Origin: Escherichia phage UPEC03
Sequence record: MW250785
DNA: 64,000 bases
Strand: one strand, 5' to 3'
The position numbers and the translations under genes are program-made. Every line of letters starts with the position of its first letter. Positions within the stretch are counted from its first letter, which is position 1. Shown here piece after piece: positions 30,206 to 34,514 of the stretch. The notes beneath the pieces were generated by a model. That model did not search any database. It was not told the DNA's origin and saw only the letters and a program-made list of their open reading frames with translations.

Positions 30206-30234
30206 AATGTATCACTATCCTGGTCAGTATGCAA
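30206..30234 (-). promoter_or_regulatory. Sigma70-type early promoter; -35 lies in the last codons of the HNH gene
   Basis: - strand TTGCAT (30234-30229), 17 nt spacer, TACATT (30211-30206), leader ACCGAAACGAAAC. Confidence 0.6.
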
Positions 30235-30760
30235 TGTTTAATTTTGCAAATTTACCAAAATGTTTTATCGCTTCCCGATCGTATGCTTTTGCAGCCTCGT
30301 ATTCGTCACGATAGGAACCGATATGTTTAACCTTGCCGTCAATCTTTATCTGTGCAATGTAACGTATTCCAGTAGGTTGATCACGTACACATACACCCTT
30401 GAATCGACTGGTTGCTACTCTTCGTTTAGTCCGGTTCTGACAGTTTCGGGATTGATCCGCTTCACGCAAGTTATCAATCCCGTCGCCAGCCTCAACACCA
30501 TTTTTATGATCAATCACATCAGGCAGTTTTCCGGTTGCAACGTAGTAGATGATTCGATGACGTAGATATCCTTTGCTTTTGAAATAAACGCGGGTATATC
30601 CTCCTTTAATCTTCGAACCTACTTCCTTTCCGATCAAGTCAGAACGTTTGTGTGACGTTCGTATAATTGTCCCCGTTTGTATATCAACAGAAACAGTTTT
30701 AAGGAATTCGTCAATTCCTTTCTGTTCTTCTTCGATTGTTCTTAGTCCGTTGTGTGACAT
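30224..30760 (-). CDS. Free-standing HNH homing endonuclease with AP2 domain (paralog 2 of 3)
   Basis: 178 aa. IDHKNGVEAGDGIDNLREADQSRNCQN and FKGVC..RYIAQIKIDGKVKHIGSYRDEYEAAKAYDREA. Overlaps the methyltransferase 3' end by 19 nt. Confidence 0.8.
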   Translation of the reverse strand: MSHNGLRTIEEEQKGIDEFLKTVSVDIQTGTIIRTSHKRSDLIGKEVGSKIKGGYTRVYFKSKGYLRHRIIYYVATGKLPDVIDHKNGVEAGDGIDNLREADQSRNCQNRTKRRVATSRFKGVCVRDQPTGIRYIAQIKIDGKVKHIGSYRDEYEAAKAYDREAIKHFGKFAKLNIAY

Positions 30761-31931: not shown

Positions 31932-32164
31932 TCCGTTTTAATACCATGTCGGTATGCGTCAATCCCCAGCGGGGTAATCAGCAACCATGCTTTCGAATTA
32001 TCGTGATAGCCCGTTACCCTTCGAGCGTAACCTTTTTGAATCAGGGCATCACGCCCTGATTTGCTGGGTACGTCATCGAAATCTAAGTCTAGCACCTTAG
32101 TTGCATATCCGTAAAGTTTATACAGAACATCAATTTCAGCGCCGGACAATTTAGGATACATCAT
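31922..32164 (-). CDS. Hypothetical protein (80 aa)
   Basis: ATGA coupling upstream. Confidence 0.55.
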   Translation of the reverse strand: MMYPKLSGAEIDVLYKLYGYATKVLDLDFDDVPSKSGRDALIQKGYARRVTGYHDNSKAWLLITPLGIDAYRHGIKTEWH

Positions 32165-33162
32165 TTGTAATACCCCACAACATGATCGCGGTATACGCGT
32201 TCGATGAAATCGTTCCAGAATTCGCGGTCAACTTCTTTCGGATATGTTGAAATCGCTGCAAGCCGTTCGACTTCGCCCATGACTTCTTCCAGCTTTTCCT
32301 GTACGGTTGCGAACGGTACGCCGCCAGCTTTAACCAGTTTCAGGAATGCGCTATCAGGCAGAGGATAAACGATATCACCATCTTTGTAAATCTGGATCAA
32401 CTGCATACCACCGCGCAACGCGTGACTTAAAGCCTTCCAGTCGATGCCGTTGTTGGCTTCTGCTTGTCGTGCGCGTTCTCCGTATTCATCCCAGAGTTTG
32501 TACACTGACTTACGCATTTCATCGGCTTTGATCGTGAACTGGAATTTACGCCCCAGCACTTCATAGAAGTCCTGACAACCAGATTTCATTGTCGTGTCGG
32601 TAACGAATCGGCAGAACTCGTTTGTAGGGAAACGATTCTTGATGTCAGACACTTTCACTTCACGCGTATAGCGTTTCATATCTGGTGTGAATTCCTGAAT
32701 ACCACCGATCGTTTCGGTTTCTTTCAGTACATCGACAACTTCGCGCAGTGCAGCCAGTCGGGAACCTTTCACACCATATTTTGCGGCTTGCTTGCGAACA
32801 TAACCGAACAGGCCAGTTAGTTCAGTGGTGTAAAAACGCCAGCGGTTAGCGCGGATATACTGCCAGATTTCAGAGTTAGCGATCAGCTTGTCATCCGAAG
32901 CGTGAAGCATATCGAGCGCTACGGTATCACCATCACACGCAAGGCTGATAAACTTAGTCAGACTATACAACTGACGATCAACGTCGTCTACGGTGTTTTT
33001 AGAGCTTTTATCGCCCGTGCTGGTGTCGATAGACTTCTTCGCAGTGCCTAACAGGATTTCGCGAGGATGAGGGAGATAGATCCCTTTGTAGTCTTTATCG
33101 CTTGTTGGTGTTTCCAGTCCGTAAAGATGGGATCCAAAAATCATTTCAGTAATCATTTTCAT
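32161..33162 (-). CDS. Pol-beta-superfamily nucleotidyltransferase (RlaP / PF10127-like)
   Basis: 333 aa from ATG 33162. N-terminal GSHLYGLETPTSDKDYKG matches the GS..YG...SD.D nucleotidyltransferase signature. Confidence 0.6.
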   Translation of the reverse strand: MKMITEMIFGSHLYGLETPTSDKDYKGIYLPHPREILLGTAKKSIDTSTGDKSSKNTVDDVDRQLYSLTKFISLACDGDTVALDMLHASDDKLIANSEIWQYIRANRWRFYTTELTGLFGYVRKQAAKYGVKGSRLAALREVVDVLKETETIGGIQEFTPDMKRYTREVKVSDIKNRFPTNEFCRFVTDTTMKSGCQDFYEVLGRKFQFTIKADEMRKSVYKLWDEYGERARQAEANNGIDWKALSHALRGGMQLIQIYKDGDIVYPLPDSAFLKLVKAGGVPFATVQEKLEEVMGEVERLAAISTYPKEVDREFWNDFIERVYRDHVVGYYK

Positions 33163-33920
33163 TATACAAATCTCCAATAAAACCCTTTATGAGTTTTTCT
33201 TTTACCGTTACAGCATGAACTTACATGCCCTTTGTTATACCCCATTTCAACGGCTTCCACAATACCACCATTTAAAATAGTTTCTCTTTCTGTTTTGATA
33301 CATTTCATAATCAAAGGTTTTATCAATTCCGTCTTCTTTTGTGAAATATTAGCTAATGCAATTACATTTCTGATATCAGATTCACTCATTAAATCAGAAA
33401 TCTTCTTTCTTAACCATACATAGCCTTGACTTTTGGCAAGTTTGCCGGAGCAACATTCATGAATATGACTAGGGTTAAATCCACGCAATTTCATTTCTTG
33501 CCGACCGCCTAATATGATAATCTCGTCTCCTGTTTCAAGGTTGAATCCGACAACTGGAATTATTTGCCGTTCCGACATTTTCTTTCTCGCTTCTTTCGTG
33601 AATATTGTAAGAGATTTTAATTTTCTCGCGTCGCTCATTTGCGAAGATGTCGTTTTGTATTTCTTAGTATTATGAGACATACGGAAAAAAGCATATCTCA
33701 TTTTATCACCAGCATACTTAGCAAGTAGATGATGAGCAAGATAATGCTCTTTATATGTTAAATATACTAAATTTTCGGGTTCATCAGTACCACCTAATGA
33801 CTTAGCAACGATATGGTGTATATCATAACCGCGCTTTCTATACTTTTTCGAGTAACCTTTAGGTATATCTCTTCTTTTTGCCAATGTAATTAGTTGGTCG
33901 TAAATACGCTTATAGTTCAT
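33162..33920 (-). CDS. Free-standing HNH homing endonuclease (Mob-like) with repeated C-terminal DNA-binding modules
   Basis: 252 aa from ATG 33920 (SD AGGAG). HHIVAKSLGGTDEPENLVYLTYKEHYLAHH. Two repeats of CC(S/N)GK..K.(Q/H)G(Y/F).W. Paralog of 61728-62396. Confidence 0.8.
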   Translation of the reverse strand: MNYKRIYDQLITLAKRRDIPKGYSKKYRKRGYDIHHIVAKSLGGTDEPENLVYLTYKEHYLAHHLLAKYAGDKMRYAFFRMSHNTKKYKTTSSQMSDARKLKSLTIFTKEARKKMSERQIIPVVGFNLETGDEIIILGGRQEMKLRGFNPSHIHECCSGKLAKSQGYVWLRKKISDLMSESDIRNVIALANISQKKTELIKPLIMKCIKTERETILNGGIVEAVEMGYNKGHVSSCCNGKRKTHKGFYWRFV

Positions 33921-33947
33921 ACACTCTCCTTTAGGCGTATTTATCAC

Positions 33948-33983
33948 TTAAAATCCGAACACGGTTTCCATAATCATTTTCAT
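33948..33983 (-). pseudogene. Duplicated 5' fragment of the RlaP-like gene upstream of the HNH gene
   Basis: - strand ATGAAAATGATTATGGAAACCGTGTTCGGATTTTAA (MKMIMETVFGF*) against the real start ATGAAAATGATTACTGAAATGATTTTTGGATCC (MKMITEMIFGS). The first 13 nt are identical. Confidence 0.55.
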
Positions 33984-34050
33984 CAGAATTCAACCTTTAA
34001 TGTTTTTGCGATCCCGCGCAATTCCGCGGTAGTAATAACAGGGATCATAA

Positions 34051-34323
34051 TCATTTCCTCACAGTTTCAAATTCTTCGTCAGATTTCCAGTACACGTTAA
34101 AGTTACGGCAATCGTGGTCGGAAGTCAACGTATATTTTTCTTTTGTTTTCTCGTCGGTGATCACCATCGTTTCATTCTCGATCGAGTCCACACCATAGAC
34201 GAATACTTTATCACCGCGTTTATTCAGGAACGCTTCACCTGTTTCAACCAACTGCCAGCAGTTGACGGGTAAACCACCCGCACAGATCGGACGGTTTACG
34301 AGGCAGTAAGGACGTTTAATCAT
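34051..34323 (-). CDS. Hypothetical protein (90 aa)
   Basis: ATGA coupling. Confidence 0.55.
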   Translation of the reverse strand: MIKRPYCLVNRPICAGGLPVNCWQLVETGEAFLNKRGDKVFVYGVDSIENETMVITDEKTKEKYTLTSDHDCRNFNVYWKSDEEFETVRK

Positions 34324-34514
34324 TTAAATTCTTCCATTGCATAGGAAGTAAGATCTTTGAAATACCTTGCGGTGTTGCCTTCTGGGTTGTTTGTAATCTC
34401 CATCAGGATAACAGCACCATCAACTCCTGCTTTCTTAGCCATGAATGAAATGGCTTCGGTAGCAATAATCGTTGCTTTCATAACATCAGCTTTAGAAACG
34501 TTGATCGTATTCAT
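34320..34514 (-). CDS. Hypothetical protein (64 aa)
   Basis: SD AAAGGAAG upstream; first ORF after the PeSL. Confidence 0.55.
   Translation of the reverse strand: MNTINVSKADVMKATIIATEAISFMAKKAGVDGAVILMEITNNPEGNTARYFKDLTSYAMEEFK

Follow-up and report, generated by a model that had tools for sequence, protein, structure and literature searches.

An HNH homing endonuclease cassette that very probably invaded a nucleotidyltransferase gene of Escherichia phage UPEC03 and brought a replacement gene start with it

We analysed a 64,000-nucleotide (nt) stretch of Escherichia phage UPEC03 (sequence record MW250785; hereafter the window), in which a gene for a free-standing HNH homing endonuclease lies at the 5′ end of a gene for an RlaP-like nucleotidyltransferase (NTase). 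Our reading, held with considerable confidence, is that a cassette carrying the homing endonuclease gene (HEG) invaded the NTase coding sequence after nt 29, that its own rewritten start keeps the gene working, and that the resident start was left behind as a stub. All feature coordinates of the locus are given on the minus strand. The original prediction placed a HEG cassette of ~0.8 kb inside the NTase 5′ end and took a repeated start as the mark of its boundaries. Both points hold: the insert is exactly 821 nt long (33134..33954), with its left boundary at 33955|33954 and its right boundary at 33134|33133. Two further parts of that prediction were not borne out. The start was not duplicated at insertion; the downstream copy is borne by the cassette, is strongly diverged and exists in four versions in four HEG lineages. 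Nor was a ribosome-binding region duplicated, the similarity beginning at the ATG.

The insert comprises a 34-nt leader, the 759-nt HEG and replacement NTase nt 1-29, which overlap the HEG stop. Immediately upstream of it stand the resident NTase nt 1-29 (33955..33983), the pseudo-start, identical at 28/29 positions to the functional NTase start of Miro, a phage that lacks the HEG. The cassette's TTT TAA closes this resident fragment, yielding the mini open reading frame (ORF) ATGAAAATGATTATGGAAACCGTGTTCGGATTTTAA at 33983-33948 (MKMIMETVFGF*), the 12-codon pseudo-start recognised at the outset. The true NTase start is found, again as proposed, at 33162 (ATGAAAATGATTACTGAAATGATTTTTGGATCC). Its codons 1-10 (33134..33162) are the replacement copy, here of the version termed type 1, MKMITEMIFG, and its ATG overlaps the HEG stop (TAATG). 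The Shine-Dalgarno (SD) sequence of the working NTase, GGAG in TGGAGAT, falls within the last HEG codons. With the SD inside the end of the HEG and the NTase ATG overlapping its stop, the NTase would be disabled if the HEG were lost imprecisely. The HEG is a separate ORF with its own SD and stop. No group I intron or other RNA family was detected, there being no Rfam match in 32900-34400 at E <= 1, and a repeat search of the region found no inverted repeats at the insert ends. A transposon-type target-site duplication was also considered and rejected, as the repeats are 76-77% identical, lineage-specific and without inverted repeats at the ends.

Comparison with relatives is, at the level of sequence, the decisive evidence on the repeat. 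The set used comprises 175 GenBank records collected by megablast, T4-like phages of Klebsiella, Enterobacter and Cronobacter in the genera Slopekvirus and Pseudotevenvirus. Removing the 821-nt insert from one HEG-bearing member, KP13MC5-1, reproduces the empty site of Miro, with 0 differences from -90 to +139 of the junction. The window itself aligns to Miro in two pieces upstream of the cassette. One is the end of a 90-amino-acid (aa) gene together with the first seven codons of the Miro129 gene. The other is the last 16 codons of Miro127 followed by ATGAAAATGATTATGGAAACCGT(A/G)TTCGG, so that the pseudo-start plus 54 nt upstream of it match the 3′ end of Miro gene 127 and the NTase start with 97.6% identity over 83 nt. 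The pseudo-start is the resident NTase start, cut after nt 29; the 5′ end now in use belongs to the cassette.

The HEG occurs sporadically, in 12 of the 175 related phages, with the same junctions each time. The same conserved locus is thus occupied in some close relatives and empty in others. Counting metagenomes, the same architecture and junctions are seen in 12 GenBank phages and 4 metagenome contigs, the latter being one further locus and three contigs of two diverged lineages.

The two starts behave as expected of resident and imported DNA. Among HEG-bearing phages the pseudo-start is near-constant and equals the local HEG-less allele. The window, KP13MC5-1 and locus L021 carry the Miro-type allele A, and KMI9 and phi1_146015 carry allele B (TTGAAAACTGTAATGGAAACC), which is TTGAAAACTGTAATGGAAACCGTGTTCGG, the type of the HEG-less Fraggle_ER53, leB and IMG/VR locus L036. 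A scan of IMG/VR with ATGGAAACCGTNTTYGG returned 69 loci, 65 of them chance matches; the other 4 are HEG-less NTase starts that serve as references for alleles A and B. The working start, in turn, comes in four versions that track the HEG lineage: MKMITEM(I/V)FG, MKTIVEMVFG, MKVVAEMIFG and MKEVVHMLFG. The last two belong to HEG lineages at 84% and 77% aa identity that share the architecture, and in the 77% lineage the Ser codon has also changed, from TCT to AGC. Type 1 starts at >=95% identity are found in HEG-bearing records only, and type 2 starts at >=99% in 5 records, all HEG-bearing. Neither type occurs in ~163 HEG-less GenBank relatives or in the 4 IMG/VR loci, all of which start with pseudo-start-type sequence. 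We also looked for a footprint of HEG loss, that is, a recoded right half without the HEG, and found 0 records in the 90-95% identity band to a type 1 query.

Divergence is concentrated at the junction. The resident remnant is identical to Miro at 28-29/29 positions, the inserted copies at 15-23/29. Likewise, the 17 resident nt left of the cut (ATGGAAACYGTRTTYGG) are conserved at 14-17/17 positions among the HEG-less Miro, Fraggle and RB43, and the cassette copies of this stretch match Miro at only 8-11/17. Relative to the resident gene, the ENA lineage has 18 differences in NTase nt 1-45 and 1 in nt 46-215, and ALF_ER54 has 11 in nt 1-45 and 3 in the next 200 nt. In the window, recoding extends past the right junction (33121..33133), with synonymous third-position changes at NTase nt 30, 33, 36 and 39. 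The recoded codons G10, S11, H12 and L13 take in the GS motif, and the following 98 nt are identical to Miro. The inserted copies retain the FGSHLYG motif; their changes in codons 10-13 are synonymous, and residues 3-8 do change. We note that types 1 and 2 (33134-33162 compared with the post-HEG starts of loci L006 and L003) differ at 12/32 nt, and the adjoining ~200 nt of the HEG 3′ part at only 4. Among HEG-bearing phages, left-side architectures occur in varied combinations with start types, which points to recombination inside the HEG.

The cassette also sits in imported DNA. Mosaic maps based on MAFFT alignments place it in the middle of a Miro-type tract of ~1.07 kb (33026..34102), whose left crossover lies at 34102-34076 and right crossover at 33033-33026 in difference maps against Fraggle_ER53 and Miro. 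Outside 34102-33026 the window (35250-34102 and 33026-32161, compared with Fraggle_ER53 locus L093) is near-identical to the HEG-less Fraggle_ER53, with 0 differences per 50 nt for more than 1 kb to the left and 0-3 per 50 nt to the right of the tract. The tract replaces ~2.3 kb of Fraggle-type DNA, including Fraggle's three-gene block. Banach provides a second case: it equals leB outside a differently bounded Miro-type tract of ~1.4 kb around the same HEG (L007 compared with L095), with ~270 nt of the tract left of the HEG and ~330 nt right of it. In two different backbones, then, the HEG lies in the middle of a short imported tract. The Fraggle_ER53-like window is close to Cronobacter and Enterobacter phages of Pseudotevenvirus type, with Slopekvirus (Miro)-type DNA only around the HEG. 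The Miro-type tracts in the window and Banach backbones therefore indicate that the cassette crossed between phage genera. Co-conversion tracts are expected from break-initiated homing (PMC2988022), and the tracts of the window (~1.07 kb) and Banach look like such. The NTase gene itself is correspondingly mosaic, with cassette nt 1-42, Miro-type sequence to ~nt 130 and Fraggle-type sequence thereafter.

The endonuclease gene (33162..33920) encodes 252 aa and matches PHROG 655, 'homing endonuclease', at E = 2.9e-33; PHROG 20162 and 3855 match its C-terminus. Its N-terminal domain, 30-47% identical to T4-type Mob genes, holds the HNH motif YDIHHIVAKSLGGTDEPENLVYLTYKEHYLAHH (HH..N..H), conserved in 12/12 copies examined, and in tblastn searches T4-type mobC-like genes match at 32% over 67% of the endonuclease. 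All copies are intact at 252 aa, 0/16 being frameshifted. The ratio of nonsynonymous to synonymous substitution (dN/dS) is 0.08-0.18, with dS of 0.9-1.8 between lineages, and the HEG is under purifying selection. Intact copies, low dN/dS and high dS together indicate that the HEG has been selectively maintained and is much older than its present flanks. A source for it was sought widely. Against 50,697 phage records, tblastn returned only the 12 same-site copies and then matches below 60% identity; IMG/VR held no close HEG relative; among 5.8 billion proteins there were three relatives, all with the same architecture as the window; and a pattern scan of metagenomes added only one more ALF_ER54-like locus. 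In none of these phage-record, IMG/VR, protein and metagenome searches did the HEG appear elsewhere in a genome, or before the NTase without a pseudo-start.

The functional NTase (32161..33162) has 333 aa and is RlaP-like (T4 nrdC.11-like; Pfam RlaP E = 1.5e-11, PHROG 388 E = 2.6e-120). The insertion junction lies in codon 10, directly before Ser11 of FGSHLYGLETPTSDKDY, part of the motif FGSHLYG...DKD, which we take to be the hG[GS]...DxD active-site signature of pol-beta-fold nucleotidyltransferases. The Pfam RlaP match begins at NTase residue 7. Homing endonucleases favour conserved, functionally critical targets (PMC2988022), and by this analogy the NTase junction is the kind of site that they favour. 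In several records (MN101223, KMI9_197; OL539471, BANACH_209; MW448170; MZ612130) the RlaP-like NTase is named 'thioredoxin', a name without Pfam or PHROG support.

How might such a cassette work? A free-standing HNH HEG very probably entered the RlaP-like NTase gene after nt 29, in codon 10, in a form that keeps the gene working. The cassette's stop codon ends the orphaned resident N-terminus, leaving the 11-codon stub dead, and the cassette supplies the start codon, an SD within the last HEG codons and rewritten NTase codons 1-10, with wobble recoding to codon 13 in the window lineage. The enzyme would then cut HEG-less alleles at or near NTase nt ~10-45, and repair of the break from a HEG-bearing co-infecting genome would copy the cassette, the pseudo-start and the NTase body acting as homology arms. 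Divergence of the replacement copy may protect the HEG-bearing allele from self-cleavage, from recombination between the 29-nt repeats that would delete the HEG, or from both. The clustering of substitutions at the junction suggests that the target spans the insertion point, as for intron- and intein-encoded enzymes. We raise more tentatively, as less likely than not, that this is 'start-replacement homing', a distinct route into phage coding sequence at an active-site motif, in which the recoding is adaptive and the same endonuclease activity provokes four deletions seen upstream, removing neighbour genes. Adaptive recoding, if true, would explain why hypervariable replacement copies stand beside near-identical HEGs.

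Several points weigh against this reading. The Pfam HNH match scores 18.9 bits, under the 21.4 cut-off, and an I-HmuI_NUMOD-like match at residues 225-248, a candidate for a separate C-terminal DNA-binding region, scores 26.9 bits against a cut-off of 27. The cut site, the recognition sequence and even present endonuclease activity are inferred. Type 2 alleles keep resident sequence right of nt 29, which would leave only the left half-site to confer any immunity. In addition, free-standing endonucleases of T4 mostly cut at a distance of hundreds of bases from the gene that encodes them (PMC2988022), so that a cut exactly where the cassette sits cannot be taken for granted. The replacement copy may differ because it descends from a distant donor gene, not because recoding was selected; no donor lineage was found in the searches above. 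Finally, these phages are highly recombinogenic, and mosaic tracts could also arise by ordinary recombination.

Other histories of the locus were weighed against invasion of the NTase by the cassette. The likeness of the two starts could be one of start context, since phage genes often start ...AAATGATT..., and nothing need then have been duplicated. The starts of Miro129, Miro127 and the NTase do have AAATGATT in common, and the exact run of 13 nt, correctly reported before as opening both pseudo-start and NTase start, is reached by itself in 10/300 dinucleotide shuffles of 33100-34100. None of these 300 shuffles, however, reached the 26 identities of the best 36-nt window; scoring against shuffles was the check that had been proposed for the repeat. 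The equally proposed self-comparison, run on 33050-34150, returned pseudo-start and NTase start as the longest direct repeat, 31 nt at 77% identity with a spacing of 821 nt. Directly counted, the two starts agree at 25/36 positions, not 'about 28 of 36', and at 22/29 in the part that is truly duplicated. Judged against shuffles, the repeat by itself is moderately significant. Coincidence is refuted by the 97.6% match of the pseudo-start and its flank to the Miro NTase start region and by the perfect empty site, which leave it next to no probability. The polarity might also be the reverse, the mobile unit being the upstream gene end, the pseudo-start and the HEG, landed before an intact NTase with a native type 1 start. 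This would fit the usual position of free-standing T4 HEGs between genes (PMC2988022) and the intactness of the working NTase. We nevertheless consider it highly improbable: no HEG-less genome surveyed (~163 from GenBank and 4 from IMG/VR) has a type 1 or 2 start, and variants of the pseudo-start track the backbone allele, those of the working copy the HEG lineage and 3′ haplotype.

Two direct copies flanking an insert are also what a true target-site duplication would leave, or a tandem duplication that arose in situ by slippage and then diverged, with the HEG landing later between the copies. To either version we give very little credence. The copies share only 76% identity, whereas the DNA that flanks them is 98-100% identical to that of HEG-less relatives; between types 1 and 2 there are 12 differences in 32 nt against 4 in the adjacent 200 nt of the HEG; and none of the 175 records has the duplication without the HEG. 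A somewhat stronger competitor, though still an unlikely one, is that the HEG inserted once and is now a passive relic, spread by general homologous recombination only, its tracts being ordinary patches. T4-like phages do recombine very often, and the HEG haplotypes are themselves mosaic. Such a relic is hard to reconcile with dN/dS of ~0.1 over lineages with saturated dS and with 0/16 frameshifted copies. It would also have to account for two independent short HEG-centred tracts in two otherwise near-identical foreign backbones, and for the conservation of the stop codon, a hairpin in the leader and the overlapping start.

The cassette leader (33921..33954) merits attention in its own right. 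It contains the stub stop TAA (33950-33948), the late-promoter-like GATAAATA (33945-33938) and the SD AAGGAG (33931-33926). All lineages have a stop codon at this position of the stub, be it TAA, TGA or TAG. The T4 late-promoter box has the consensus TATAAATA; GATAAATA is one mismatch from this consensus and might work as a promoter. The SD and AUG of the HEG lie within a hairpin (33901..33943) whose 15-nt arms span 33943-33929 and 33915-33901; its minimum free energy is -11.7 kcal/mol, with z = -2.6. Both arms are conserved in five aligned HEG loci of three diverged lineages. No covariation is seen across these five loci because all hairpin pairs are invariant. The 5′ arm of the hairpin starts inside the GATAAATA box. 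I-TevI, segB and Aeh1 mobE similarly have a hairpin that sequesters the ribosome-binding site beside a late-promoter-like box in the leader, and in these systems late transcripts without the 5′ arm free the ribosome-binding site (PMC2988022). By analogy, HEG translation in the window may be under the control of hairpin and late promoter.

Upstream of the cassette, the original prediction fared less well. It had HEG-less relatives joining the ORF that ends at 34051 directly to MKMI... of the NTase. In the relatives, ~1.2 kb carrying Miro129, Miro128 and Miro127 lies between; the forecast failed because of a separate three-gene deletion in the window. Downstream of its homologue of the 90-aa ORF, Miro has Miro129 (201 aa), Miro128 (75 aa), Miro127 (125 aa) and then the NTase. 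The window lacks this block through an in-frame deletion of ~1.15 kb at the microhomology TATTA (34037-34033). What is left of the block is a 23-codon fusion ORF (33983..34054), MIMIPVI|TTAELRGIAKTLKVEF*, whose junction is also present in KMI9 and Earwig_ER32. KP13MC5-1 carries the HEG and all three genes, and insertion and deletion are therefore separate events. The Miro127 homologue has a precomputed Pfam Phage_ProQ_C-like domain (L001 2679-3056; L020 2188-2939, in two copies; L021 505-882). With it the window has thus lost a gene, retained by nearly all relatives, for a putative ProQ/FinO-type RNA-binding protein.

The third ATGATTATG copy that had been reported overlapping the stop at 34051 is real as a repeat, the exact 11-mer AAATGATTATG occurring at 34056-34046 and at 33979-33969 in the pseudo-start. 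It is not a further copy of the NTase start; the copy at 34046..34056 is the start of the Miro129-homologue remnant. The consecutive genes Miro129, Miro127 and NTase (L001 1845-1860, 2670-2690 and 3050-3070) all start in a AAATGATT context, and these starts overlap the stop of the preceding gene. Such look-alike AAATGATT starts acted as deletion substrates. In all, deletions at short repeats arose four times independently directly upstream of the HEG, removing one or all three genes, in HEG-bearing genomes only. The TATTA deletion is found in the window, KMI9 and Earwig_ER32; one with its endpoint at the 11-mer AAATGATTATG in KLB1, KLB21, KLB27 and Banach; one at CGCTG, on a Fraggle-type backbone, in phi1_146015, R2_1 and W9-2; and one at AAATGAT(T), which removed Miro127 alone, in ALF_ER54, KLB3 and the metagenome locus L092. 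The sites in other loci are at L004 ~1470-1490, L002 ~1900-1915 and L005 ~640-660. Every deletion ends <= ~70 nt from the HEG left junction, and the deletion flanks are joined in 0/163 HEG-less records. The deletions might stem from break repair with early template switching, from residual nicking of a half-site or from size compensation.

The local gene order on the minus strand runs from an NMN adenylyltransferase/Nudix gene through a 64-aa ORF and the 90-aa ORF (34323-34051) to the HEG feature, the RlaP-like NTase (33162-32161), several small ORFs and a cytosine-C5 methyltransferase gene. A second putative homing endonuclease of 178 aa is encoded at 30224-30760 on the same strand (Pfam HNH_3, E = 3e-6). 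Its C-terminal half is AP2-like, as judged by eye, and its gene shares 19 nt with the 3′ end of the methyltransferase gene (31665-30742).

If our reading is correct, selfish endonucleases have, in addition to splicing (introns, inteins) and gene splitting, a third way of residing inside an essential-looking phage gene without inactivating it, which is to carry a rewritten start of that gene. Near-identical pairs with and without the HEG (window/Fraggle_ER53, Banach/leB, KP13MC5-1/Miro) amount to a natural experiment. With exact junctions, mapped conversion tracts and four recoded versions of the target, the recognition site, the substitutions conferring immunity and the cost of repair (adjacent deletions) are directly testable, and the phages concerned, which infect Klebsiella and Cronobacter, are cultivable. 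For annotation, it follows that the 11-codon stub and the 23-codon fusion ORF should be treated as scars, not genes.

It is instructive to set the locus beside known mobile endonucleases. No phage description of this locus, or of a HEG cassette that replaces a gene start, was found in the literature searched, a single collection that does not prove novelty. The sporadic distribution of a free-standing HEG and the short donor-type flanking tracts are reminiscent of intronless homing by SegF, SegG, SegB and MobE of T4, in which flanking markers are co-converted (PMC2988022). Those seg and mob genes lie between genes and cut at a distance, whereas the present HEG lies within coding sequence. In disrupting a conserved target that encodes an active site while host gene function is kept, the cassette resembles HEGs of group I introns and inteins. 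Unlike them, it has no ribozyme (no Rfam match) and no in-frame intein, and gene function is rescued at the DNA level by a replacement 5′ end, not by splicing of RNA or protein. The host gene likewise stays functional when Aeh1 mobE interrupts nrdA or T4 mobA lies between genes 60 and 39, but there the split gene yields two polypeptides that have to reassemble, with no part duplicated (PMC2988022). In the present locus, the 11-aa stub is dispensable, and the full 333-aa protein is made from the cassette start.

By such comparison, the closest analogue is the fungal mitochondrial mORF, known from atp6 of Allomyces macrogynus and from atp6, atp9, cox2 and nad3 of Glomus, which carries a foreign C-terminus of the gene that it enters (PMC3630166). 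In both systems an endonuclease ORF sits in a protein gene together with a diverged copy of the displaced end, and the native end is kept as an unused remnant, near-identical to element-free relatives. The DNA identity of the inserted copy is also comparable, 64-81% in mORFs and 76% in the phage locus, with the protein largely kept in both (PMC3630166). There are differences. The phage locus replaces the 5′ end, start codon and SD, and mORFs replace the 3′ end; its enzyme is of the HNH type in a lytic T4-like phage, and those of mORFs are LAGLIDADG or GIY-YIG enzymes in mitochondria; and its replaced segment is very short (10-14 codons), with the stub closed by the cassette's stop. The cassette resembles the mORF class in the way it works but does not belong to it by descent.

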